64,000 nt of DNA from Octopus sinensis. Its lineage: Eukaryota. The stretch is taken from assembly GCF_006345805.1 (NCBI RefSeq), contig NC_042997.1:134044001-134108000 (forward strand), in the 5' to 3' direction. A program made the translations under genes and the position numbers. The notes beneath the pieces are model-generated. The model was given only the letters and a program-made list of their open reading frames with translations, was not told where the DNA came from and searched no databases. This document shows, one piece after another, positions 4,250-61,164 of this stretch; positions within the stretch are counted from its first letter, which is position 1, and every line of letters begins with the position of its first letter.

Positions 4250-4722
4250 ATATCATCATCATCATCATCATTGTTCGACCGTGGTCGAGACAATGGAATT
4301 TACCATGCTACGCCTGACTTCACGGTCCATCATAGCATTACGGAGGTCCTGTTGCTGGATGCCTGTATCCCTGGAGATTACATCAGGGTAGGAGAATGTG
4401 CACCCTCTAGTATTGCGAGTAGATGGCTTCCAGAGGAGAAGAGTTGAAATTGCCCCGTTTTCAGCTCTACAACAATGTCCAGCAAACTGGACTCTCCTAC
4501 CTTTCACAAGAGATAACACAGGTGGTAGTTTCCCATATATTTGCATTTCGGTTGGATGACGCTTCCACGAGAGATTTTGAGCTCTCATAAGGAGGTGAGT
4601 GTAGGTTCCATCCAACCGCCTCTCAAGCTTCTTTGATAACGTCCAGGTTTCTGAGCCATATAGTAGAATTGGTTCGACTGTGGCTTTGAAGATTTCAAGT
4701 TTGAAGTCTCTACTTAGATTTG
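4250..4722 (-). mobile_element. RTE-clade LINE 3' fragment
   Basis: IFKATVEPILLYGSETWTLSKKLERRLDGTYTHLLMRAQNLSWK...RRVQFAGHC; (TGA)n tail at the 3' end. Confidence 0.85.
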
Positions 4723-4729
4723 GAGGCGC

Positions 4730-5040
4730 TTTAAGGTCCTCGTGGAGAAACCAAGAAAAGCCATGGGTGCCTGAACAACAGGGTAAGAGCCCATCTCTTT
4801 TGATTCCCTTTTTACAGGTACATACTCAGAATTGGTCCTTCCACACTGGCCATTCTTCCAACATTCATTCACCTTTCAACAAATTCGTTACAAGGCAATA
4901 CTTCCCTCTCCACCCTCAACTTCCTTTTCAAGTGAAACATGAAAAAGTTGATGAGGGCTTGGCCAAAGAAGGAAGTGTCTATCTTTAGCCCTTGCAAAAT
5001 GTCCACCATCTTACCGCTTTCGCTACAGCCATTAGACAAA
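4730..5040 (-). mobile_element. L1/Tx1-like LINE ORF2 C-terminal remnant
   Basis: Frameshifted GLKIDTSFFGQALINFFMFHLKRKLRVEREVL, resembling Tx1-type ORF2 ends (recognition from memory). Confidence 0.5.
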
Positions 5041-5055
5041 TAATAATAATCATAC

Positions 5056-5103
<48 letters not shown>

Positions 5104-5105
<2 letters not shown>

Positions 5106-5679
5106 CAGTACCAGGCAGTGGCTATGCCCTGATGCAGTACCAGGCAGTGGCTCTCGTGGCTTCTGTTCTTAACTGATTGGAAGTGTTATCATGTACATTG
5201 TTTTGTCTTGGTATAAAAGATGGGCTACAGCAAATATTCTGCTCAATACCACAGATTTGCTTGTCAGTTGTTTGACCTTAACCAGTTGAGCATGTCCCTT
5301 AGTGGCTGACGATATGTGCATCTCTGATCACGAGCAGAAGTAGTGGGGGAGCATCATAGCCATGTGTTGAGAGGGATTCTTTGGGGTTTGAATAATTCAC
5401 CTCTGGAAACATGGGTGGTTCTTTCAACATCCTTAAACAACCCTTATTCAGGGACCGTTTGAGCGGGATGGGCTACTCAACCTGATGAAAATTCTAACTG
5501 GGCCCCACCTGTAAGGTCATGTGCTGTTTATCTTGATATGAGATCACCATGTCGCGCACATATGGTTGTGATGCATGTGTCTGGTGTACCTTTATCAGAC
5601 GGGTAGTCATGATGGGTATATTGGGCTTCGTATATTTTACCCCAGTGTCACTTTGATGGCATGAACTGCTCTCTCACTC

Positions 5680-5680
<1 letters not shown>
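5104..5680 (+). mobile_element. Family D non-coding element, full-length, with duplicated 5' tip
   Basis: Same sequence as 3058-3610; atgcagtaccaggcagtggct is present twice at the 5' end; (TAA)n on both sides. Confidence 0.8.
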
Positions 5681-5711
<31 letters not shown>

Positions 5712-6271
5712 GCTTTTCTTTATTGGCCACAAGGGCCGAACACAAACGAAAAGGGACAATACACCGCAAGGGAAAAGTGCGGCTTAACTTCAAGTATAAA
5801 ATAAAACAAGAACAATTAAAAATCAACGATAAAATTTCCCGACTTGGATCTATGGTGTCCCCTGGCTGGCCCTAATTGAAAGCTATCCTGTATCAGAAGG
5901 ACTGTATACAAAACATGTGTTCACATATTTTTGTATATCATGTATACCTTTTCTCTCATCTCCGCCTCCTTCTTCTCCTTTTCTTCCTTATTTTATGTAA
6001 CTCCACACACACACACACACACACAGACACTCAGAAACTGTTCTTGTAATGCTTTCCTCATCAGATGCCCCTGTGACAAATTAAAGAAATCGTTGGTAGT
6101 AGTAGTGGTGGCGGTGGTGGTTATAGTAGTAGTAGTAGTAGTAGTGATCACTAGTCTATACTATAATGGAGAAAGGTGTTTATTACTTAGGTATGTAACA
6201 ATTACTAAAAGTACTAAAAGAAAGCAATTATTAAAAGGTTGATCGGCTGGAAATATTTTTATAAATTCATG

Positions 6272-6413
6272 GGATCTTTACCTTTTGACCGACAGATTTA
6301 AAAAGTTTTTTGTAACTAAACACTTTCAAACTTCGGACACTGGTAGAATGTGTCATATAAAACATCTTTTACTCTTAGCGTTTTTAAATCTGTCGGTCAA
6401 AAGGTAAAGATCC
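6272..6413. mobile_element. 142-bp MITE with perfect 33-bp terminal inverted repeats
   Basis: ggatctttaccttttgaccgacagatttaaaaa ... tttttaaatctgtcggtcaaaaggtaaagatcc. Confidence 0.8.
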
Positions 6414-7309
6414 AATTTATGTTCTAAGAAATTTCCTATAATTTCGATTTCTCAAGTTTCTTGAATTTTTAAACTCCGATTTTTCGCAAATTTAAATATT
6501 CATTGCCATCCATTGCGTCCAATTCACAAATTTAAACATCCATTGCATTCACTGTGGAGTATTCCACTCTCATTTGCAAAGTCTCTCACTGTTTCTTTTA
6601 AGTTTTCATTCTCTGTTTGGAAAACCGACAGTTTATTCTATTAATGTATACGTAATTTATTATTTACTGAATGAAAATTTTTAAAATACCCGTATAATTT
6701 CTGAAGGCGGGATAGCTGTGAGAAGAACCTAGAAAGTTGGGTAATTACTGTTAGAAGACGAGGAGAAAAAAAGAAGTTACCGACAAGTACTCGAAAATTG
6801 CATCTTATGCACAGTTTCCAGACACTCTATACCACTAAGCCAATATATACACAAACAAGTTATAAAGGCGGCGAGCTGGCAGAAACGTTAGCACGCCGGG
6901 CGAAATGCTTAGCAGTATTTCGTCTACCGCTACGTTCTGAGTTCAAATTCCGCCGAGGTCGGCTTTGCTTTTCATCCTTTCGGGGTCGATAATAAAGTAC
7001 CAGTTTCGCATTGGGGTCGATGTAATCGACTTAATCCCTTTGTTTGTCCTTGTTTGTCCCCTCTATGTTTAGCCCATTGTGGGCAGTAAAGAAATATATA
7101 CAAACAAGTTGCACGAGCGAGTTCAAGTGACATACTCGCGCACACACATAGACACACATACTTACAAATGAAAAGCAATGAATGTGTGTGTGTGTTTGCT
7201 GCTCACTGACGAAACTTTATGCTGCATTACTTTTGCGAGTGAACGGGTCGCCGTTTCAAAGCAAGAAAATATTTTGACAAAAATGCAATTTAGATGCTGA
7301 AGTGAAACT

Positions 7310-7481
7310 GGTACTGCTTAAAAACAGGTGTTACGTACAAAACATTTTAAATGTACGCTGTGTGGACGTGTAACGACACCCTAACCCTAACCCTAACTAA
7401 CCCTAAAACTAACCCTAAAACTAACCCGCCTCTTCATATTGTTACGTAGATTCATCTGGACCTCTGTATTTAAGTAGTGCC
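7310..7481. mobile_element. Merlin-like MITE containing telomere-type (CCCTAA)n repeats
   Basis: 8-bp TSD GTGAAACT (7302-7309 and 7482-7489); TIR ggtactgcttaaaaacag / ctgtatttaagtagtgcc (15/18); ccctaa units at 7378-7427. Confidence 0.7.
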
Positions 7482-7722
7482 GTGAAACTAACGATTTCTG
7501 TGTGTTCTTGAATGGCTTACAAACACCCACGCTGCAATTGTTTTGGTTTCAGCACACGATCTCGGATCAAGTCACTTGCTATGCAAGTACATCTCAGTAA
7601 TTTTTTAAAAAATCACTGGATAAATGCCAGCAATGACCTCAGGCACTCCAATATTTTAATTTCTAAACAGAAACCATCGGGGACAGGGAGTAGGTTTGCA
7701 AAAAATTCAATTCATAATTTCT

Positions 7723-8879
7723 CAAATAATGGAAACACCTATCATGATAATTTTGAAATATCTATAAAACTGTCAAAAGCTTGTTTGATTTTATGTTTTT
7801 TTTTATTTATTTTTAGTGTTGCTTAATATGTTTTGCTAAAATTGCTGTTTCTTTTCAGATATCAGAAAAAGGTAATTAAAATTCATTAAAATGACAGATC
7901 TATCAGACTTTCAAAGAGGTCAAATTGTTGGTGTTCGTATGGCAGGCGCTAGCGTAACTAAAACAGCCGAAATGTTTGGTGTATCAAGAAGTACTGTCTC
8001 GAAAGTAATGACAGCTTTTGACAAAGAGGGAAAAACCTCGTCGAAACAAAACTCTGGAAGAAAACCAAAACTTTCAGATAGGGACCGTCGGAATCTTACG
8101 CGAAAAAAAAAACTGTTTGCCGGGAGCTGCACAAAGCCAGATTTCACGGGAGGGCTGCAATCAGAAAACCACTACTTTCAAAAATAAACGTTGCAAAGCG
8201 TTTAGAGTGGAGTAAAAACCTACGGAATTGGTCCCTAGAGCAGTGGAAGAATGTTATTTTCTCAGACGAGTCATCCTTTACCTTATTTCCCACCTTCGGC
8301 TGAGTATACGTGTGTAAACAGCCAAAAGAAGCATTTTACTCAGACTGCCTTCTTCGAACTGTTAATTATGGAGGAGGATCTGTGATGATCTGTGGGGCTA
8401 TATCTTGGAAATCCGCCGGCCTATGGCAGAATTAATAGTCAAAACTAAGCATTTTATTTGATCAAATTCATCCTATGGTTGCGGCACTATCTCCAGAGGG
8501 AAACGCAATATTTCAGGATGATAATGCACCAATTCACACAGCTAAATTTGTTACTGAATGGCATGGGGAACATTCTAGTGAGGTTGAACATCTTATCTAT
8601 CCACCACATTCTGCAGATCTCAATATTATTGAACATTTATGGCGCATTTTAGAAGAACAAGTAAGGAATCGATGTCCTCCACCACCATCACTACAAAAAC
8701 TGGAGACTGTTTCAGCTGAAGAATGGACAAAAATTCCTTTGGAAACAATTGAAACTTTGTAAGAGTCCAAACCTCGCAGAATTCAAACTGTAATTACAGC
8801 CAAAGTCGGTCCTACCCCATATTAAAATTAATTTGTTTGAAATTTTAAGGTGCTTCCATTATTTTGTCCAACCCATGTA
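7723..8879 (+). pseudogene. Tc1-family transposase pseudogene (D..D36E spacing), right TIR intact and left TIR partial
   Basis: MTDLSDFQRGQIVG (HTH), WKNVIFSDES, FQDDNAPIH, DLNIIEHLW; frameshifts and stops. Right end ...tccattattttgtccaacccatgta; left remnant aaataatggaaacacct. Confidence 0.9.
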
Positions 8880-9800
8880 AATCGGGGAAAATATTGAAAA
8901 ACATCAATACATGCGAAAGTGACAAAAAACGTGCAGGCTTGTCTTTGGATATGCTAGAAACAACACCCAAAAGGCTCTTAAAACACTCACTTTTGCCTCT
9001 GAAAATATTAAAAAAAAAGTTTTTACCGAAAATGCTCTCTCCAAGGTTTTGAAGTGCAAAACAAAATTGGCCAAAATAAGTCCGTAGTAATATGATGAGG
9101 GAGGGGTGTTAAAAAAAAAGAGTTTACAAAACTTTTTCATATAAAGATGCCCACCCACCCATCGTTTCAAAAATGATGAAAATCCCTGAAAAAATTTTCC
9201 TCAAGACCGGGCGGTACTTCTGCTTGTCGTAATAGTAGCACAAATTTAATGTCACTCTAACATTTTTCGGAATTCATTCAAAAAAGTTATTCTTATGAAT
9301 CATACATCCACGCATGACCTTGGTGATAAAATGTGTCAATATATTAACGCTTTCACATTCTGCTTTATTTTTTTTTATATTGTATCCTGTTTTTTATCTA
9401 TCTATATTTTACATGTAGAGGCGCGTGGCTTAGTGGTTAGGGTATTGAACTCATGATCGTAAGGTTGTGGTTTCGATTCCTGGACCGGGCGATGCGTTGT
9501 GTTCTTGAGCAAAACACTTCATTTCACGTAGTTGCAGTCCACTCAGCTGGCAAAAATGAATAATCCTTCGACGGACCGGCGTACCTTCCAGGTGGGGAAT
9601 TTCTACGCCACTGAAACCGGGAAACCGGCCCTTATGAGCCTGGCATGGCTCGAGAAGGAGCATTTATTTTTTTTTATATCTTATATAGTATAATGATTGA
9701 AGATGTGCGAGACTGTACTGTTTATTCTCCCCCCCCCCACCACCACGTTTAAAAAAAAGTCATTTTACTTTGAAGAAATAAATATGAAAAAACTATAACG

Positions 9801-10225
9801 TAGGCGTAGGAGTGGCTGTGTGGTAAGTAGCTTGCTTACAAACCACATGGTTCGAGGTTCAGTTCCACTGCGTGACACTTTGGGCAAGTGTCTTCTACTA
9901 TAGCCTCGAGCCGACTAAAGCCTTGTGAGTGGATTTGGTTGACGAAAACTGAAAGAAGCCCGTCGTATATATGTGTGTGTGTGCGTGTGTGTGCGTGTGT
10001 GTATGTGTGTGTCTGTGTTTGTCTGTGTTTGCCCCCCCCCCCGCAACATCGTTTGACAATCGATGCTGGTGTGTTTACGTCCCCGTAAGTTAGCGGTTCG
10101 GCAAAAAGAGAACGATAGAATAAGCTCTAGGCTTACAAAGAATAAGTCCTGGGGGTCGATTTCCTCGACTAAAGGCGGTGCTCCAGCATGGCCGCAGTCA
10201 AATGACTGAAACAAGTAAAAGAGAG
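9801..10225 (+). mobile_element. SINE family B, full-length reference copy
   Basis: taggcgtaggagtggctgtgtggtaag head; tail aaatgactgaaacaagtaaaagag; short TSD ataacgt. Confidence 0.85.
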
Positions 10226-12079
10226 CATAACGTTTACTTGTATATCAAACATAAATTATACTGTTTAATATTACAAGATTCGCTTCCGTTTGAATCCCAT
10301 ATATAAACAAATAGCGTTTTCTTCGCGTTCGTAAAAAATGTCATAAAGTGATAAAAAAAGTGAGTAAATTATTTTTAACAGTTCTTATCTATAGAACTAA
10401 ATTTTCAAATTGTGTTAGACTGCGATCAAGCTTGGATACCACCTTGAAATAATTTAGTCAATAATATCATCTCCATTACTTATTCTTCAAGCCTGTTACT
10501 TAATTTATCGTTCTAAGTTGTTTATAAAAATTTTAACCCAGATAAATGAAAAGGCTCATGGATTATTTTACTGATTACAGGATAAACTATAACACAGTCT
10601 TTGTTCAGTACATATGTATGTTGTCAATCTAATTTATAATTTATGTATCATATTTTATAATTTATATATCGTATCTATATGTAGAAGCGCAATGGCCCAG
10701 TGGTTAGGGCAGCGGACTCGCGGTTGTAGGATCGCGGTTTCGTTACCCAGACCGGGCGTTGTGAGTGTTTATTGAGCAAAAACACTTAAAGTTCCACGAG
10801 GTTCCGGCAGGGGGTGGTGGCGATCCCTGCTGTACTTAGCCAGCGGGGTGGCGTCATTTGAAGGCTAAAACAATGCGAAGTGCATTGTAACCAGCGATGT
10901 GTAGCAACATCGGATAGCCTGGTCGGTCACGGTGATCAATATGTATGAGTAGCTTGCTTACCAACCACATGGTCCCGGGTTCAGTCCCACTGCGTGACAC
11001 CTTAAGCAAGTGTCTTCTACTATAGACCAAAGCCTTCTGAATGGATTTAGTAGACGGAAACTGGAAGAAGCCCGTCGTATATGAATATATGTATATGTAT
11101 GTGTGTGTATATATTTGTGTGTCTGTGTTTGTCCCCCCCAAACTGGTTCGGCAAAAAAGTAACCGATAGAATAAGTACTAGGCTTACAAAGAATAAATCC
11201 TGTGGTCGATTTGCTCGACTAAAGGCGGTGCTCCAGCATGGCCGCAGTCAAATGACTTGGGTTGAGTTTGAACTCAGAACGTAGCGACGGGCTAACTATT
11301 CTGCCAGCTCACCCTTCTCCTAATGTCATTAGCTTGATCAACTAATCTTTGCTCAGTCCCTTTAAATATACCCCTCTCTACCCCACATGTTAACATCCGT
11401 TTTCTATAGTCCGTTCTTTTAGCTTCTCTTTCTAAGTAGTGCTGTATCACTATCCTGTTTTCTTCCTTCTCCTTGCTCTATTATCTGTTGATGCTGCATT
11501 AGGATAGCAATTGTGGTCAATCTGCTTCTTTAATAAACACACACACACCAAAAAATATAGAAAACACAATCACACCTATAGCAAGATACACCTATAGCAA
11601 TACCAACCCCTGCAGCACCACAATAGTCATTACATTCCCTGCTTTCACAAACAATTCCACCATTACTACCACTAAAAGAAAATACCCTCAGCATTTACTA
11701 GCAGTAACCCACTAAAATAAAATGCCCTCAACATTAACCAGCCACAAAACTTCGTGCTAGTGAGGAGGGGGCCAAAAATATTATTGGCCCTTATAGCACG
11801 AAGGAAGGACATCGAGAGAAAGAGAGTGAGATCTTCGGCACCATCACTAGAAACAATGATGATGGAGCGGATGTCTCTGAAAACATAAAAATATTAGTGG
11901 CAGGCTTTCCTCGCGACGTGGGAACCCCTAATGTAAAATCCACGCGTAGATTTCTAAGGAGGTTCCCAAAGAAACCCCAACAAGTTATGGAGGTTAAACT
12001 ACCTGATCTCCAGCGGAATCCAGATGGTAAGTAGACCCCTTTATTTCTTTTCCAAACCCTTTCTGACTACCAAGGCGTG

Positions 12080-12700
12080 TTTAAGAGTGGGTTGTATAAA
12101 TGTTCGTGACCTGGTATCGTCTTAGAAGCGATATCACATAATTGGTTATGGATGTGATAGCCATCAGCAAAACCAGCATTTCCAAAACATATGATCTCCC
12201 TATTTTCGACGATTTTCAGATCTACGCATACTTTAGTCGGCCTAGAATGGGAAGCGAGGTGGCAGTGTTGTTTAGAAAAGGCCTAGATCTCGAGGTACGG
12301 GCGATCTTCCTGGATCTAGACAGTAAGTTGGTAGTCTTGGATGTCAGGAATACGAAGCTAGTACTTTTAAACTAGTCGTTTTGTACGATCTGTCTAGGGC
12401 AGAGCAGCCACATTTCGCCAGACATTCGGGGCATCTCGCTCTTTAGTGCTAGTGGGCGACTGGAACGCCATCTTCGATGCACACCTGGATAGATGGGAGA
12501 TGGGTGTGTAAAAACCTCAAAGATCTGTTCAGCTGCTTCCGACAGGAAGTTAGAATAATTTGTATGCCTAGAGATAGAAGTAGCATAAGTCATCCAAAGT
12601 TCAAAGTCATCAAATGTGTGTTCTGTACGGTCGACCTAGATAAGATATATAGGCTAGGTCCCGGTTACTAGAAGCTGAAGGCGTCTTTCCTGGCGTAACA
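12080..12700 (+). pseudogene. L1/Tx1-like LINE apurinic endonuclease remnant
   Basis: VGCINVR, DVIAISKT, VAVLFRKGL, VLVGDWNAI and GPGY*KLKASFL motifs across frameshifts. Confidence 0.7.
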
Positions 12701-15311: not shown

Positions 15312-15622
15312 TAATTCCAAGAAAGTTAGAGGTTGTGAATCCAACCAACTGAGGGATAATAACTATCCAATATACTGCTGGTAGAATACCCAATTATTAA
15401 TACATAAAAGTGTCTTTTATTGCATTGCAATTACATTACCGAGTGTACTAAATGGGTGAAGGTAAAGAGATATTTTACCATTAATTTATAGAGCAATAAG
15501 GAAATGGAGGGGACCAATAGGTGGTTCATAAACTTTTAGACATTATATCAACTTACCTATTAATTTACTAAACTGACAATTAGAAGAATATACATACATG
15601 TATAAAACCTTATGTACTTTAT

Positions 15623-15754
15623 AAAATCTCTGACGAAGTCTAGAGAAACACCCAAGTACCTCAAATTCATCTACTTATTACTTCAGTTTACTGGAGTAAT
15701 AAAGGTAGAATGAGGTATATTTGCCTCTTGGCTGAAACAGCAGTAAGTTATTTT
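15623..15754 (+). ncRNA. Type I hammerhead ribozyme motif with very long stem II
   Basis: aaaatct-CTGACGA-agtctagag...ctcttggct-GAAA-cagcag-TA-agttatttt; lies between diverged inverted arms 15490-15626 and 15822-15960. Confidence 0.7.
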
Positions 15755-15988
15755 CCCAATTTCTATTCCTGTATGTTATATTGTAATAATTACTGGTATC
15801 TTTATATATTAACATATTTTATATTTTATATGTAAAGCATATGTTATACATGTATATTCTTGTAATTGTCATTTTAGTAAATAAATAAATAAGTTGACTT
15901 AATATAATGTCTAAAAGTAGATGAACCACCTATTGACCCCCTCCATTTTCTTATTGCTCTCTCTCTCTATATATATGTATGTAAGTAT

Positions 15989-16072
<84 letters not shown>

Positions 16073-16172
16073 AAAATGTATAAATTTGTATTTTCTCCGT
16101 TGTTTTTTGTGCTAAGCCACTCGGTGTTAAATTAATGGTATTATTAAATTAATATCAATTTTTCACCCTCAT

Positions 16173-16212
<40 letters not shown>

Positions 16213-27712: not shown

Positions 27713-27889
27713 GGAGATGTACTCGCATAGCAAGTGATTTGATCTGATATCGTGTGCTGGAACGAAAACAATTGCAGCGTGGAAGGTGTTTGTAAGCCTG
27801 ACAAATTAAACTTAAATGTTGAAGTGAATCTAACGGCTTTTGTGTGTTTCTTAAATGGCTTACAAACACCTTCCACGCTGCAATTGTTT
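27713..27889. repeat. Interspersed repeat with internal inversion (33-bp perfect inverted repeat)
   Basis: 27766-27798 is the reverse complement of 27857-27889; same family as ~7240-7597. Confidence 0.75.
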
Positions 27890-28045
27890 ATATATATATA
27901 TATATATAAATAACCAACTTACTTAGAAATGGATGCGTGCGTTCCGTTATATAATAACAAATTAATAAATAAAACATATGCATATATACATACATATATG
28001 TACGTACCTACATCTACATGCATATATATATATATTATATATATA

Positions 28046-28099
<54 letters not shown>

Positions 28100-28269
28100 A
28101 CAATTGAGGGTAAAATTAATTAATCAATTTCACCAAGTGTTCAGTATGTAAAAGGACCATTTAAGGCGAATTCAAAATATTACATTATATAATTAGGGCT
28201 TAGTAAAATAAATTACTTTGCCACATACTGAACTTAGTAGAAATAGCAGCCAAAAAAAAATAAAGAAAT

Positions 28270-28332
28270 TTTGAGCTGACGAAAGAAATGCTGATTTTAC
28301 TTGGCTAATCTTGAAACGTTGACGTACTCAAA
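28270..28332 (+). ncRNA. Type I hammerhead ribozyme
   Basis: tttgag-CTGACGA-aaga...tctt-GAAA-cgttgacg-TA-ctcaaa; all core nucleotides present; GUA cleavage triplet at 28324-28326. Confidence 0.85.
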
Positions 28333-28829
28333 CGATCTATGTACTTGTGATATTTTTCTGTATTTACCTCCAAACCTTCGTGAGCTGTCTGGAGTAAACA
28401 TTATCTGAGAGAAATTTTTGTTTAAGTAGTAGAAACGGCTAAAAATTTTTTTGGCTGCTATTTCTACTAAGTTCAGTATGTGGCAAAGTAATTTATTTTA
28501 CTAAGCCCTAATTATATAATGTAATATTTTGAATTCGCCTTAAATGGTCCTTTTACATACTGAACACTTGGTGAAATTGATTAATTAATTTTACCCTCAA
28601 TTGTTGATATTATAATTCATTTCTCTCTGTCATACTGCCTCGGTTCTCGCGGTTAGAATATAATGTTTGCTAGATAGACCACGTGGGTGGAAAAGGAGTG
28701 CAGAAATTTACGCCTGCGCATTTTTAATTTGTTGGCACTGTCAGTTGGAGCTGGTTCATTTGAAGCGACAAGTTCGCAGATAGGTAAGGTTCCTTCTTTT
28801 TAGTGTTTCCAAATTCCAAATTAAGAAAT

Positions 28830-28892
28830 TTTGAGCTGACGAAAGAAATGCTGATTTTACTTGGCTAATCTTGAAATGTTGACGTACTCAAA
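28830..28892 (+). ncRNA. Type I hammerhead ribozyme (second copy, +560 bp)
   Basis: Identical to 28270-28332 except C>T at the first stem III position (U-G wobble). Confidence 0.8.
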
Positions 28893-29082
28893 CGATCTAT
28901 GTACTTGTGATATTTTTCTGTATTTACCTCCAAACCTTCGTGAGCTGTCTGGAGTAAACATTATCTGAGAGAAATTTTCTTTAAGTAGTAGAGACGGCTA
29001 AAACAATTTTTTTGGCTGCTATTTCTACTAAGTTCAGTATGTGGCAAAGTAATTTATTTTTCTAAGCCCTAATTATATAATG

Positions 29083-29119
<37 letters not shown>

Positions 29120-31429: not shown

Positions 31430-32620
31430 ACCAGCCCTGGAGCAACCAACATAAAGCTGACCATGAGAAAAGCAGGCCAGTAGATTTCAAAGTCTGACTT
31501 TGAGCTTTGTTAATAGACATTGCAAAGCATAGTCGCACTGGGAATTGTGTTCATTTGAACTCAAATGACGTGTCTGTTGTTATTATTGGAAATTCTTGGA
31601 ATGAAAACCTCTTTCCAAGAGGTACATCCAATGATGATGGAAGCTTATATCACCTTAGCTGATAATATCTTCACAATCAACCTTGTCCCATTGCATAATT
31701 GAGTAGGATTTAAATTTCTTAGAAGCATTATTAGGATTCTTACCTTCAGAAAAAGTTTATGTGGAGGAGTTCCAGGTGGCTCAAGACAATTAAGGAACCC
31801 TGTTGGGTAATGGACAGCTTGATTTTCATCAAGGACTGAATCAACTGATTTGTACTCCTTAATGGCTGTTGGAATCTTGTTTGTAAATCTTCGCTATTGT
31901 CTCACTTTTTTGAGCAAAAATTGCCCTTTCACGCAACCATTTATGTGAATTATAATTATTACTCAAGTCTGAAAATACCCTGTTCTTCAATTTAGCTGTG
32001 GAAGTCACCATGATAGCACTATGAGTCAAACTGATATCACCATTCCCATCAAATGGTGCTTTCTCATTTCCTGATTGGAGGAGCCAGGCTTTGCACAGTG
32101 GTCCTGATGTAATAAAGTTCGCACGTTAGTATTGAAGGAGAAATTCTGTTTAATTTCATAGGTGTGAAGACTTAATGCATTTTATTTCATCAGGTCTTGT
32201 TCGTCTCGGAATGACTGGTAATGTCTGTCTGAAGTCTCCCGATAAAAATAATGTAACTCATCCCATGTATTTATTGTTGCCTCTAATGCCCTGTAAGGTC
32301 TTATCAAGAGCTTCCATTGCATCTCTATGTGACATGGTGCATTCATCCAAAATGATAAGGTGGCATTGGTACAATCCTTCTGCTGAACCTGAATCTTTGA
32401 TTATGTTACAAATTGGACTGTCATTTGTGTCCAAGTTTAGTAGTAATTTAAAAGCAGAATGAGCTGTTCGTCCTCCAGGGAGAATGGTGGCAGCAAAGCC
32501 AGGCAATGCTACAGCAATTGAAATTCTTTTTTGTTGCCTCAACTTGGAGAGAAGCAATGTTGTCATAAATGTTTTACCTGCGCCACAAAGAGAATCAAGA
32601 AAGACAATTGCTCTGCTTTT
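31430..32620 (-). pseudogene. Helitron Pif1-like helicase fragment
   Basis: GAGKTF, GGRTAHSAFKL, LIILDECTM, GDFRQTLPVI, MLLRNLNPTQLCNGTRL, QFPVRLCFAMSINKAQ; stops and frameshifts. Confidence 0.9.
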
Positions 32621-33236
32621 TTCGGGCGATTGTGGAACGCCGCACGCACGCGCGCGCACAGACGCACAAATGCATATACATTCAGTATCAAAACATCAGA
32701 TAAAATGGATGTGCGTGTGTGAGAGAGAGAGAGAGAGCGAGTGAAAGGGTGTGTTGTTATGTATATGTTCAAACATAAATAAATAAGCATACATCTTTTT
32801 TGTTTGTGTACGTGTGTATGTGTGTGTATGTATGTGTGTATATGTATTGTGTGTGTGAGAGAGAGAGAGAGAAACTCCCGTTTAAACATAACTCTCTCAC
32901 ACACACATACATACAAAAAGATGTATGTGTATGTATTTATGTATGTACGTATACATGACAACACACTCTCATACACACAATAAGTGTATACAAAAAACAC
33001 TACATACGAAAACACGTGTGTATGTAGGACTGACAACAAATACACAGAGTTGAACACGGCGAGCAAAAAGTAAATAAATAAAAAAAAATTACGGAAATTA
33101 ACGAAGTGTGCGAGTTCAAGCGAAAGAATGCCCATATTTTTTGGACGCCCAATGTTGAATTGCAAAATTTCAATGTGATATTTGTATAATAACGAAATCA
33201 AACCTGGAGTGTGTATGTGTGTGTGAGTGTGTGTGA

Positions 33237-39551: not shown

Positions 39552-39692
39552 TAAAAACGGTAAGATAACAAAAGAAAGAAAGAGACCTCGATATTATGTA
39601 AATAGAGGAATTTATCTGTAAATGTAATATGTGACGATTATTCGGTAGGCATGATAAAACTCTGAGTTTCGGATTTTTTTTTCCGATGGCCG

Positions 39693-39753
39693 GATAACTG
39701 AAGAGATGGCGGTGTGGATTTCCACCTCGGCATCCGAAACTCGGTGTTTTATC
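39693..39753 (+). ncRNA. Type I hammerhead motif within a fold-back (39624-39673 / 39733-39782)
   Basis: gataa-CTGAAGA-gatg...catcc-GAAA-ctcggtg-TT-ttatc; one extra base at the base of stem II. Confidence 0.6.
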
Positions 39754-39782
39754 ATGGCTACCGAATAATTGTCACATATTAC

Positions 39783-41412: not shown

Positions 41413-41497
41413 ATTTTCCTGAAGAGAATGCTGCAAATGGTCTCCTTATTCAATCCGAATTTGGAAATTTGCGGCCTTTGAAACATGTGTAGAAGAT
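41413..41497 (+). ncRNA. Type I hammerhead ribozyme motif
   Basis: attttc-CTGAAGA-gaatgctgcaaat...atttgcggccttt-GAAA-catgtg-TA-gaagat; sits in a unit bounded by (TA)n at ~41320 and ~41705. Confidence 0.7.
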
Positions 41498-47400: not shown

Positions 47401-48116
47401 AAACGCTGCGTGTGTGTATTCTCTAGATTAATTGTTCAAGATATTCAATGTATGCTCTTTTACGCAAAGTAAACGGTCTAGGTTAGCTGAGTTGTGATTC
47501 GTATATGATGAAAATAAATACAAGCTACTGATCTCTAATATGAACACAAGATCACTAGAAACTAATATAATGGATCACACGCAAAGTTAAAATATGCGGT
47601 GACTTTTCACAGTGTATAGCTATGAATTTATTAAAGAAACATATTATATTCACACATACATAAACACACACATGTCCACAAATACATGCACACACATGCA
47701 CACATACCCAATATAAAACATAAAACCAGGAGGTGTGAGAGGTGAAAATAAATTTATTTATCTACATGACTTCCATATGATTACAGCCGTTCCGTAACCC
47801 ACGTTTTGTATTAACTTTAGCATGCAAAATATTAAACGTACATGTTTGCATGAATATGTATACGTAAAGCGGCGAATTGGCAGAATCTATCTTTTTCATT
47901 TGTTTCAGTCATTAGACTAGGGTCATGCTGGAATATCACCTCGAAGAGGGTGTCTCTCTGTGAGACTTGGACATAGAACTATGTGGATGTGAAACAAACT
48001 TATTACTACACAGACACACCTGCACCTCTCTCTCCCGCTCTCTCGCTCTCTCGCTCTCTTTCCCTCTATCGATTTCTCTCTCTCTCTCTCTCTCTTTATA
48101 TATATATATATATATC

Positions 48117-48847
48117 TCTTCCCGTCTGTCTTGATAGACAATGGGTCGCGCCAAGGGTGGGGCCTACTTTGATGATGAGCAGCGTCTGCTGTGACTGAAC
48201 AGTCCAATCTAGAGTGGCAGTCCCTGGTACAGTTGCTGCACACGAACCCGATGGGTACGTGTGGGGTGTTGCTGCAGTAGTCCTCCTCCTGTCCCGCCTG
48301 TCCGACCACAGCTGTGCTCTCCTTTCCTCAGCCATGGAAACGCCTTTCCTCACTGTCCGACGCCAGGCAGAGCGGTCAGCAGCTGTTACCTCCCACGTGT
48401 CCACACAGATGTTAGCAGTCCTCAGGTCGCGCTTGCACACATCCCTGTATCGTAGCTGTGGACGTCCCTTGGGTCGGGATCCCGTGGTGAGTTCGCTGTA
48501 CAGGATGTCTTTAGGCATGCGACCGTCCTGCATGCGGCAGACGTGTCCGAGCCAGCGCAGTCGTCTCCGCACGAGGAAGGCATGCATGCTTGGCATATTA
48601 GTCTGTTCTAGGATGACTCCGTTTGGTACTCGGTCCTTCCAGGAGATGCCAAGGATCCGTCGAAGACACCGCATGTGGAAGCCGCTGAGGCGGCATTCTT
48701 GCCGGGTGTATGTTGTCCAGCACTCGCTGCCGTATAGTAGGGTGCTCAGCACGCAGGCTCGGTACACTGCGATCTTGGTGGTTATTGTGAGTATGTTGTT
48801 TTCCCACTCTCCTGGAGAGCTTAGCCATGGCAGCAGCAGCCTTCCCA
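48117..48847 (-). mobile_element. Relatively young RTE (BovB-like) LINE 3' fragment
   Basis: VYRACVLSTLLYGSECWT...RRRLRWLGHVCRM...GRPQLRYRD, C-terminal CSNCTRDCHSR finger; GC-rich with few lesions. Confidence 0.92.
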
Positions 48848-49137
48848 GGCTATCCGATGTTGCTACACATCGCTGGTCACAATGCGCTTCGCATTGTTTT
48901 AGCCTTCAAATGACGCCACCCTGCTGGCTAAGCGAGCAGGCCAGACCGCGTGTGTACCGTTGGCGATTTTTTTCCCTCTGTCTTCCCTTCTCTGGATCTT
49001 TCCTTCTCCTATGTTTCCAACGAAGAGCTCCGCTAGAAACGTTAAACCCTCCTTCTTTCCTGAGCATCCAATAATACTATATTTGTTCCACGTCCTCGCG
49101 TTGTTTTGTGTTTTTTTGTGCTTTCATGTTTGAATTA

Positions 49138-58173: not shown

Positions 58174-58265
<92 letters not shown>

Positions 58266-58689
58266 CAAAATAAGAAAATGGAGAAATACACCTTAATCAA
58301 TAATCAACTACCAGATAATACCCAATCACATAATTTATTAACCCACTACATATGAACATCAAGGTCAAACATAATAGTATAGAACAAAACAATGCACATC
58401 AATGAGTGATATGATACAATAAATACAATATGTATAAGTGAATATAAATAAATATAAATATAAATATAAACTATATCTTACAGCTGTTTCAGCCATGCAG
58501 ATATGGGTATCTCATTATGCTCATATTAGCCAGGTGTGATAAGTTAATATGTGGTTTGACACAATCGTTTCATTCACAAATTGAATTCGGTGATACCAGT
58601 TGCGGATTCTAGCTCGCTCTGATACTGAGTTGAGTTGGTGCCTTCTGGTATCTCAAAATTCAATATATAATCATTTATGATTATAGTAT

Positions 58690-58796
58690 TCTACGCTGAA
58701 GAGAAAAGAAGTTTCGGTAAGATAGAATTATTTAATATTTAATATTTAATTCTTATGCTTTCCTAAAAACTTGATTTCGAAACGTACGTCCGTGGA
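58690..58796 (+). ncRNA. Type I hammerhead ribozyme, array copy 1
   Basis: tctacg-CTGAAGA-gaaa...tttc-GAAA-cgtacg-TC-cgtgga; GUC triplet at 58788-58790. Confidence 0.88.
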
Positions 58797-59288
58797 TAAC
58801 TAAAAAAATGTATGATAGATTGCAGTCAATTCATTCTCTCTTACTGTTTGTGTCTGCCTTCCAAATGCTGTTTTTACTGAGATCTCCTTTTTTTAGTAGA
58901 AGAATAGCTATAACCCTTTGACTGCTATTTCTAAATTCGGTATGTGGTAAGGCAACTCGTTGCTAAACCCTTATTGCTTAGTATTACTTAAATTTTCCTC
59001 GAATGAGGCTTTTACATGCCGAAGACTACTTGGTGTAATTGATAATTTTTCCAAATTAATTAATTTCACCCTTCATTATTACGGATAACCATATTTTATC
59101 TCAGTAGATGACCACAGCATCTTGTTTTGGCTACACGCGGGTGGGAAGGGGCTGTTGACACAATCGTTTCATTCACAAATTGAATTCGGTGATACCAGTT
59201 GCGGATTCTAGCTCGCTCTGATACTGAGTTGAGTTGGTGCCTTCTGGTATCTCAAAATTCAATATATAATCATTTATGATTATAGTAT

Positions 59289-59393
59289 TCTACGCTGAAG
59301 AGAAAAGAAGTTTCGGTAAGATAGAATTATTAATATTTAATATTTAATTCTTATGCTTCCTAAAAACTTGATTTCGAAACGTACGTCCGTGGA
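59289..59393 (+). ncRNA. Type I hammerhead ribozyme, array copy 2
   Basis: Same core and stems as copy 1. Confidence 0.88.
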
Positions 59394-59885
59394 TAACTAA
59401 AAAAATGTATGATAGATTGCAGTCAATTCATTCTCTCTACCTGTTTGTGTCTGCCTTCCAAATGCTGTTTTTACTGAGATCTCCCTTTTTAGTAGAAGAA
59501 ATAGCTATAACCCTTTGACTGCTATTTCTAAATTCGGTATGTGGTAAGGCAACTCGTTGCTAAACCCTTATTGCTTAGTATTACTTAAATTTTCCTCGAA
59601 TGAGGCTTTTACATGCCGAAGACTACTTGGTGTAATTGATAATTTTTCCAAATTAATTAATTTCACCCTTCATTATTACGGATAACCATATTTTATCTCA
59701 GTAGATGACCACAGCATCTTGTTTTGGCTACACGCGGGTGGGAAGGGGCTGTTGACACAATCGTTTCATTCACAAATTGAATTCGGTGATACCAGTTGCG
59801 GATTCTAGCTCGCTCTGATACTGAGTTGAGTTGGTGCCTTCTGGTATCTCAAAATTCAATATATAATCATTTATGATTATAGTAT

Positions 59886-59991
59886 TCTACGCTGAAGAGA
59901 AAAGAAGTTTCGGTAAGATAGAATTATTTAATATTTAATATTTAATTCTTATGCTTTCCTAAAAACTTGATTCGAAACGTACGTCCGTGGA
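59886..59991 (+). ncRNA. Type I hammerhead ribozyme, array copy 3
   Basis: Same core and stems as copy 1. Confidence 0.88.
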
Positions 59992-60484
59992 TAACTAAAA
60001 AAATGTATGATAGATTGCAGTCAATTCATTCTCTCTTACCTGTTTGTGTCTGCCTTCCAAATGCTGTTTTTACTGAGATCTCCCTTTTTAGTAGAAGAAA
60101 TAGCTATAACCCTTTGACTGCTATTTCTAAATTCGGTATGTGGTAAGGCAACTCGTTGCTAAACCCTTATTGCTTAGTATTACTTAAATTTTCCTCGAAT
60201 GAGGCTTTTACATGCCGAAGACTACTTGGTGTAATTGATAATTTTTCCAAATTAATTAATTTCACCCTTCATTATTACGGATAACCATATTTTATCTCAG
60301 TAGATGACCACAGCATCTTGTTTTGGCTACACGCGGGTGGGAAGGGGCTGTTGACACAATCGTTTCATTCACAAATTGAATTCGGTGATACCAGTTGCGG
60401 ATTCTAGCTCGCTCTGATACTGAGTTGAGTTGGTGCCTTCTGGTATCTCAAAATTCAATATATAATCATTTATGATTATAGTAT

Positions 60485-60591
60485 TCTACGCTGAAGAGAA
60501 AAGAAGTTTCGGTAAGATAGAATTATTTAATATTTAATATTTAATTCTTATGCTTTCCTAAAAACTTGATTTCGAAACGTACGTCCGTGGA
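60485..60591 (+). ncRNA. Type I hammerhead ribozyme, array copy 4
   Basis: Same core and stems as copy 1. Confidence 0.88.
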
Positions 60592-60913
60592 TAACTAAAA
60601 AAATGTATGATAGATTGCAGTCAATTCATTCTCTCTTACCTGTTTGTGTCTGCCTTCCAAATGCTGTTTTTACTGAGATCTCCCTTTTTAGTAGAAGAAA
60701 TAGCTATAACCCTTTGACTGCTATTTCTAAATTCGGTATGTGGTAAGGCAACTCGTTGCTAAACCCTTATTGCTTAGTATATATATATATATATATACAA
60801 AGGGTTACAGTTTTTGTTTCTTAGCTAAATGAAAACATCATTGTCACTCGCATAAGTTCATTAGCAACAAATAAGTGAAAGTTTAAAATGTGGAAGGTAT
60901 TTCTGCCGCACCT

Positions 60914-60957
<44 letters not shown>

Positions 60958-60958
<1 letters not shown>

Positions 60959-61164
60959 CAAGGTGCGGCAGAAATACCTCCCACATTTTAGACTTTCACT
61001 TATTTGTTGCTAATGAACTTATGCAAGTGACAATGATGTTTTCATTTAGCTAAGAAACAAAAACTGTAACCCTTTGTTTAAACAACAGTAAAATTAATTT
61101 TTCATAAATGTTATTTCTTTTTCCTTTTGTCAACCTTTCAAATGTGGGAGGTATTTCTGTCGCA
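60958..61164. mobile_element. Tc1/mariner-type MITE whose left 120 bp is also present inverted at 60797-60916
   Basis: ta-caaggtgcggcagaaatacctcccacattt ... aaatgtgggaggtatttctgtcgca. Confidence 0.7.

Follow-up and report, generated by a model that had tools for sequence, protein, structure and literature searches.

Two hammerhead arrays carry a shared downstream block

The 64-kb window (the whole stretch of DNA that was analysed) comes from an animal genome of 2.7 Gb that is rich in microsatellites. It contains two tandem arrays of hammerhead units, here called F59 and F28, together with arms and fragments of related elements. Coordinates given without a locus name are window positions, and sites A and B and helices P0 to P4 are defined below.

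58558..60777, + strand: F59 array, about 3.7 units of 598 nt that are 99% alike, 5'-truncated, stopping at site A against (TA)n
58690..58796, + strand: type I hammerhead of the first F59 unit, with core CTGAAGA...GAAA, a long stem II and a palindromic loop 3
after 58790, + strand: predicted hammerhead cut in the first F59 unit
58265..58557, - strand: 5'-truncated copy of another hammerhead family, forming the left arm at the F59 insertion site and joined to the F59 array without (TA)n
28260..29088, + strand: F28 array, 560-nt unit, stopping at site A
28098..28258, - strand: inverted arm of the F28 insertion, stopping at site B against (TA)n
16085..16176, + strand: 3' fragment of a third family, F16 (3' strand of P2 plus P4), stopping at site B with a (TA)n tract on each side

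Hammerhead cores recur at 58696, 59295, 59892 and 60491 in F59, and the F28 hammerheads lie at 28276 and 28836. As the first-pass annotation had described, the two families have different hammerhead stems (I-III); the type I core is common to both. The sequence blocks that it named are present, in the same order, at 58921-59151 and 28454-28696, and the likeness between the two regions exceeds chance (blastn 67% over 172 nt, E 5e-8; nhmmer E 1e-9 to 8e-12). A more distant fragment reported near 16 kb is weak when taken alone (missed by nhmmer, E 2.1 with our covariance model); it is the 3' end of F16.

Pattern matching placed single block motifs at 6,331, 8,869 and 1,463 positions across the genome, with no match for any of the reversed controls. 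These counts are pattern matches, the block words being too common for a word-based DNA search. The loci that we fetched sort into many families. F16 (902 first-look candidates) has a 484-498-nt unit and its own hammerhead. A covariance model built from 15 rows, with F16 and F93 left out, recovered whole F16 blocks (E 2e-5 to 6e-4) and revealed F93 as a fourth diverged family (E 9e-8 to 5e-5).

Every tandem unit has a type I hammerhead, as judged from motif and stems by inspection or pattern, and the units are short, low in GC (~0.3), non-coding and present in many copies. By DNA-level tests (PMC7229834, PMC4209133, accessible text), these elements classify as non-LTR retrozymes. They resemble the animal non-LTR retrozymes described in the accessible parts of PMC7229834 and bioRxiv 10.64898/2026.07.22.740005 in carrying a single type I hammerhead per non-coding tandem unit, with low GC and thousands of copies. 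The block is part of a hammerhead tandem-element (retrozyme) superfamily with units of 480-600 nt, compared with ~300-390 nt in those published retrozymes.

The block folds into an RNA domain with covarying helices

The F59 copy of the block, and its F28 counterpart, contain the following elements.

58838..58860, + strand: 5' strand of outer helix P0, which pairs with the cacg block in whole-unit folds
58898..58932, + strand: hairpin P1, whose 3' strand is the invariant gctatttct block
58936..58945, + strand: 5' strand of P2, the helix named in the first-pass annotation
58946..58969, + strand: hairpin P3 (GGY, 2x2 internal loop, RGYAA/TTRCY, RCC), then CT
58997..59008, + strand: small hairpin P3c, ACC-6 nt-GGT in most families and in a shifted register in F59
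59014..59023, + strand: 3' strand of P2
59032..59070, + strand: hairpin P4, GGT...ACC (GAT...ATC in F93), then CT
59128..59151, + strand: cacg.gggtgg.aa.gg block, 3' strand of P0
28472-28481/28555-28564, 28482-28507, 28570-28595 and 28680-28696, + strand: P2, P3, P4 and the cacg block of F28

Single-sequence folds (z -3.0 and -6.6) agree on P1, followed by a long-range P2 that closes a multiloop holding P3, an AT-rich stretch and P3c, followed by P4. P3 and P4 are alike, each having a GGY/RCC-type foot followed by CT. Hairpins P1, P3, P3c and P4, the outer helix of the cacg block and the ending of arrays inside the block are additions to the first-pass annotation, which had described P2 and two covarying changes within it. 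Both changes recur among the 15 rows, with G-C (11 rows) or A-U (3 rows) at column pair 88-220 and U-G (8 rows) or U-A (7 rows) at column pair 90-218.

In a MAFFT alignment of the 15 rows, 88.5% of 471 cells were paired, a value reached by 0 of 500 shuffles and compared with 31-44% in slid controls, while two of five measures were not significant (two-sided-change pairs, 65/500; pair types, 426/500). RNAalifold, run on a first alignment in which F16 was misaligned, predicted only P2. For a kinship-aware test, 23 full-length rows were available among 58 model matches (the other 35 being partial, terminal or duplicate), and removal of six rearranged or redundant rows left a 17-row alignment. The null consisted of independent columns of matched variability simulated on a tree in 500 runs. 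In this alignment, which was fitted to the model with three P2 registers hand-set by sequence similarity and leans towards structure, the 32 pairs were 92% paired and 20 had changed on both sides, against 7.2 +/- 2.3 in the null (0/500). P2 was 96% paired with two-sided change in 6 of 9 pairs (null 2.1; 2/500), and P3 was 97% paired with two-sided change in 7 of 8 (0/500). P4 was borderline (93% paired, 3 of 7 pairs, 27-28/500), and P3c covariation was not significant against the same tree-based null in the 17 rows.

The remaining elements behave differently. P1 shows no compensatory change and its partner position is variable; at least 7 of the 8 gctatttct positions scored were paired in 12 of 17 local folds. 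Because the sequence of this block never varies, it may be read as sequence. P0, in which the cacg block pairs upstream and closes the domain, was significant in 5 of 9 families tested, where an inverted arm produced a spurious F16 value and two families were not extractable. A promoter reading of the cacg block is weakened, since the block pairs upstream in these five families, though it may still act at the level of DNA. Across the 17 rows, G-U cells outnumber A-C cells by 37 to 8 on the ribozyme strand, which favours a fold that acts as RNA on that strand.

Consistent with the first-pass proposal of a structured cis-element apart from the ribozyme, covariation survives a tree-based null. 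We weighed the contrary reading in which no structure has been selected and the blocks are relics, either of a common ancestor or of the decayed beginning of an ORF. Relatedness of the families is clear, the invariant gctatttct block is uninformative on pairing, and the start sites of a Poseidon element lie in coding sequence (PMC11167929, accessible text). Against such relics, stop codons interrupt all six frames in 15 of 15 rows, the helices span all three frames, and the block has no similarity to the Penelope-like element (PLE) proteins tested. With two-sided changes above the tree-based null, this reading is largely refuted and we regard it as extremely improbable. A comparison with Rfam, which the first-pass annotation had suggested, gave no match at gathering score: the best hit over 58560-59760 had E 1.5 and none lay over the block.

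Two readings of short motifs were rejected. The words gtatgt and ctaa were considered as splice signals; both lie in covarying helices and are absent from F16 and F93. ACCCT, considered as a telomere template, is ACTCT in F16 and ATCCT in F93, with pairing kept.

Copies end at two sites behind the two hairpins

Both arrays in the window stop inside the block against (TA)n, at one of two sites.

58978..58990, + strand: site A, 9-21 nt (mostly 12) beyond the P3 foot, where copies end; used in the window at 60777/60778
59081..59090, + strand: site B, 11-19 nt (mostly 14) beyond the P4 foot, where copies end

We mapped 119 ends in three families; 108 abut (TA)n and 11 do not. All except three of the 108 fall in two 26-nt windows (105/108 at <=25 nt past the P3 or P4 foot), divided between site A (48) and site B (57). 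Family-free motifs gave 67 ends at A and 95 at B, most often 11 nt past the hairpin foot, and a further 236 motif matches without a TA run within 45 nt are internal copies or have other flanks. As the loci for these end counts were picked via the block, a genome-wide check of F59 junctions was added, and it found exact junctions at site A in 552 cases and at site B in 272. The control, which was the F59 unit's own longest TA run, gave 0 exact junctions genome-wide.

The distance from A to B, which equals the length of the tail, is 88-104 nt. The spacing from hairpin to end is constant across four diverged families. In some families copies stop 25-43 nt past P3, on the far side of an additional AT hairpin. 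Public-run contigs labelled as other organisms also show loose (TA)n ends at both sites (59581 in X1; 59678-59679 in X8); none of the listed carriers is recorded as RNA, and metagenome contigs gave 0 matches. The first-pass annotation had suggested an RT recognition or priming signal, and the mapping of insertion ends to two fixed sites behind two hairpins agrees with that suggestion; RT binding itself we infer.

The same ends could arise if the fold served RNA stability, circle formation or hammerhead dimerisation, with A and B merely open AT-rich stretches that pair with a (TA)n primer. Junctions do overlap 2-6 alternating T/A bases of the unit, site A lies inside the P2 multiloop, and the whole unit folds compactly, with the outer helix found in five of the nine families. 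Yet each unit has 16-27 TA runs of at least 3 nt and only 2-6 of them fall within the two end windows, so microhomology alone does not pick the sites; the longest F59 run, with no junctions against 552 and 272, points the same way. Together with the pairing of ends described below, these counts make the open-stretch reading very unlikely.

Some (TA)n tracts have been entered repeatedly. At L151:1437-2847, L083, L258 and L305, different block families lie tail to tail in one tract, and tracts hit repeatedly by block families include those that end autonomous elements. Inverted-repeat elements with a (TA)n core, either MITE-like or two-armed short insertions, adjoin both arrays of the window (60798-61078 and 27764-27891).

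The family that supplies the left arm at 58265-58557 (-) occurs also at 15312-15960 and at L291-L313 (1,330 first-look candidates) and is unmatched by the block profile. It likewise has two ends, ~150 nt apart, the distal one, apparently by the same rule in other sequence, 10-18 nt past a GGGTTG/CAACCC hairpin and its CT.

Inverted insertions join one A end to one B end

Among 38 two-armed inverted insertions, 34 paired an A end with a B end, none were AA or BB, and 4 had one end elsewhere. Recounting in a set that overlaps the first found 34 A+B and 1 BB. Full junction lists for two contigs, C1 and C2, contain 92 A and 52 B ends, and in this unbiased set all 17 divergent pairs within 6 kb were A+B (P 2e-6 under independent ends). 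Openness of the AT-rich stretches alone explains neither this 17/17 pairing nor the constant spacing in four diverged families.

In these insertions an inverted, 5'-truncated arm adjoins a partial tandem. The arms of one insertion differ at 0.4-3.7 positions per 62 nt, compared with 2.0-11.7 between insertions, and arms of the same insertion were each other's joint closest match in 32 of 44 cases. This likeness fits one source RNA, and also fold-back copying or later conversion. Three mixed insertions (58557/58558 in the window, L226 and L271) have arms from different families with no (TA)n between them; for these, one RNA is insufficient and two templates or a later deletion are needed. Overall, one RNA for both ends is favoured over two.

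The L226 locus holds a further observation. An F93 arm at L226:440-3250 stops at site B and passes without a gap into a Neptune-like RT-EN element, which is 5'-truncated and has a (TA)n junction of its own at its end. This fusion may hint at the protein that moves F93.

Sites A and B might instead mark where an endonuclease cuts or resolves a DNA intermediate, produced by one priming event followed by fold-back or a template switch, with a GIY-YIG cut beside a DNA hairpin. Craig et al. ascribe the tail of such elements to endonuclease-mediated resolution and give no RNA structure in the accessible text (PMC8557442), and the Drosophila virilis endonuclease required the tail for recognition (cited in PMC11167929, accessible text). 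Fold-back copying would also yield like arms and possibly A+B pairs. Several observations nevertheless lead us to consider a DNA intermediate unlikely: the excess of G-U over A-C cells, 37 to 8, means that the fold would be worse on first-strand cDNA; ends lie at an equal distance behind similar feet at both sites, as for one type of event; and the sole element tested in vitro has both ends at RT start sites (PMC11167929, accessible text).

Search for an autonomous partner

For animal retrozymes, mobilisation by Penelope-like elements has been suggested (Cervera and de la Pena 2020, PMC7229834; Li et al., bioRxiv 10.64898/2026.07.22.740005; accessible text), and several families in this genome have intact RT/GIY-YIG ORFs of 775-789 aa. 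The first-pass annotation had proposed a comparison with autonomous Penelope-like elements. In this comparison, model R1 found no block in the 3' region of GIY-YIG/RT elements at the 37, 29, 30 and 13 loci scanned, and its matches in those element-encoding loci are separate insertions. None of 30 internal block copies ran into an ORF. The protein searches each scored 150 of 5,029-12,300 candidates, so the negative applies to the loci scanned.

Neptune-like families, an older family with a P4-like stretch and a Hydra-like family were each rejected as partner, having other 3' regions; these clade labels are motifs read against PMC8557442 (accessible text), without a tree. Apparent links between block and element at L202, L206, L229, L325 and L342 proved to be distinct insertions, separated by (TA)n or other sequence.

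We observed several features of the autonomous elements themselves. The young Neptune-like families at L093:674-5450, L350, L351 and L354 have a separate upstream ORF, RT-EN ORFs of 775-784 aa and variant hammerhead cores (TTGATAA, TTGAAAA). In L350 and L354, the tail is ~35 nt long and its last bases, TTCACCCTTAT, resemble the site B foot. In the 3' UTR of the L093 family (L093:4520-5010), repeated motifs that we take to be CCAAT-like, together with TGACGTC motifs, precede what is presumably a TATA-like box, and this arrangement suggests a putative pLTR promoter. An abundant older Hydra-like family (L261, L262 and L286; 8,019 first-look candidates) has a long CA-rich 3' UTR.

A candidate docking domain for a Penelope-type enzyme

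The domain bears on two open questions: how Penelope-like elements recognise RNA, and why their insertions have an inverted arm and a one-sided tail. Penelope-like elements are the closest relatives of telomerase RT. RT-bound stems that set the template start at a fixed distance are known from R2 3' UTRs, SINE 3' stem-loops and the telomerase template boundary, where primer-template pairing is short and there is one start site, at or near the RNA 3' end or in a template loop. The present elements differ in using a pair of internal sites jointly, with each site serving one DNA end, and neither sequence comparison nor Rfam showed similarity to those RNA structures.

The insertions share the hallmarks of several Penelope-like groups. 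Neptune, Nematis, Hydra and Naiad elements have a pseudo-LTR, an inverted copy and a tail, and (TA)n insertion is typical of Neptune, Hydra and Naiad (Craig et al. 2021, PMC8557442, accessible text). As in those elements, we observed partial tandems, an inverted 5'-truncated arm and a tail at one end only. The tail of 88-104 nt is three times the published Penelope length of 30-40 nt.

The closest functional parallel is PAc, a Poseidon element from an anole, for which both target strands are cut and extended, a dimer is predicted, and the ends of genomic copies match two positions inside the element at which RT starts (Frangieh et al. 2024, PMC11167929, accessible text). In PAc and in the present elements alike, the tail is delimited by two internal sites that lie downstream of a hammerhead, and the target is AT-rich. 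The PAc sites lie 111-118 nt into an ORF, with an AC-rich stem-loop and a 30-40-nt tail (PMC11167929, accessible text), whereas ours lie in non-coding RNA, 88-104 nt apart, each with its own covarying hairpin. We therefore treat the resemblance as an analogy and leave homology aside, the PAc sites being in an ORF with an AC-rich stem-loop.

Because the insertions bear Penelope hallmarks and PAc starts at two sites, we read the block as a docking and initiation domain. Observed directly are covarying helices, ends at two sites, inverted insertions that join A to B, and a (TA)n target. By analogy with PAc, the ends would be reverse-transcription start sites, and we think it likely that this folded RNA domain of non-coding retroelements docks a Penelope-type RT-endonuclease, with one start site per cut (TA)n end.

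In the mechanism that we propose, the unit would be transcribed and then cut by its own hammerhead to give monomers or circles. An autonomous Penelope-like protein, probably a dimer, would bind P3 and P4 (each with a GGY/RCC-type foot plus CU), and one RT would sit on each hairpin, ~11 nt from where it starts. The endonuclease would cut both (TA)n strands; each 3' end would pair through 2-6 T/A bases, ~11 nt past one hairpin, and be extended. The two cDNAs would meet at their truncated ends, leaving an inverted repeat in which one end has an 88-104-nt tail; long arrays could come from reading round a circle or along a concatemer. Transcription, cleavage, protein binding and priming are the steps that we infer.

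A broader version is one that we put forward tentatively, as somewhat less probable than not. Two hairpins on one RNA might seat the subunits of an RT-endonuclease dimer, so that both ends of the (TA)n break are primed on the same molecule. This might be the general cause of the inverted repeat and one-sided tail of Penelope-like insertions, and the 160-300-nt domain would then be a portable signal for hijacking the enzyme.

The first-pass annotation had called the element possibly undescribed, and this holds in part. The literature searched (excluding subscription journals and Repbase) yielded no covarying twin-hairpin module, no retrozyme end structure, no counted A+B rule and no cis-signal for enzyme borrowing by retrozymes. 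The accessible parts of PMC7229834 and bioRxiv 10.64898/2026.07.22.740005 apparently describe no RT recognition element or element ends, and no covariation analysis or count of end pairing was found in those of PMC11167929. Retrozymes and two-site internal initiation, the latter in PAc (PMC11167929), are already known; within the literature searched, the twin-hairpin module and the A+B rule appear to be new.

The domain supplies a structure backed by covariation, a strict A+B rule and two candidate start sites known to within a few bases, all of which translate directly into mutants for the existing in vitro TPRT assay of one such element, and the covariance model can find diverged retrozyme families that a sequence search misses.

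Other features of the window

Several ORF fragments lie elsewhere in the window: one at 32258-32695 (-), which we take to be PIF1/Helitron-type helicase-like, and two at 4268-4825 (-) and 48096-48905 (-), presumably LINE-type RT C-terminal-like. A pattern scan found two more hammerhead-like matches, at 39692-39755 and 41413-41497, and a short degenerate (CCCTAA)n-like interstitial repeat occupies 7378-7427.
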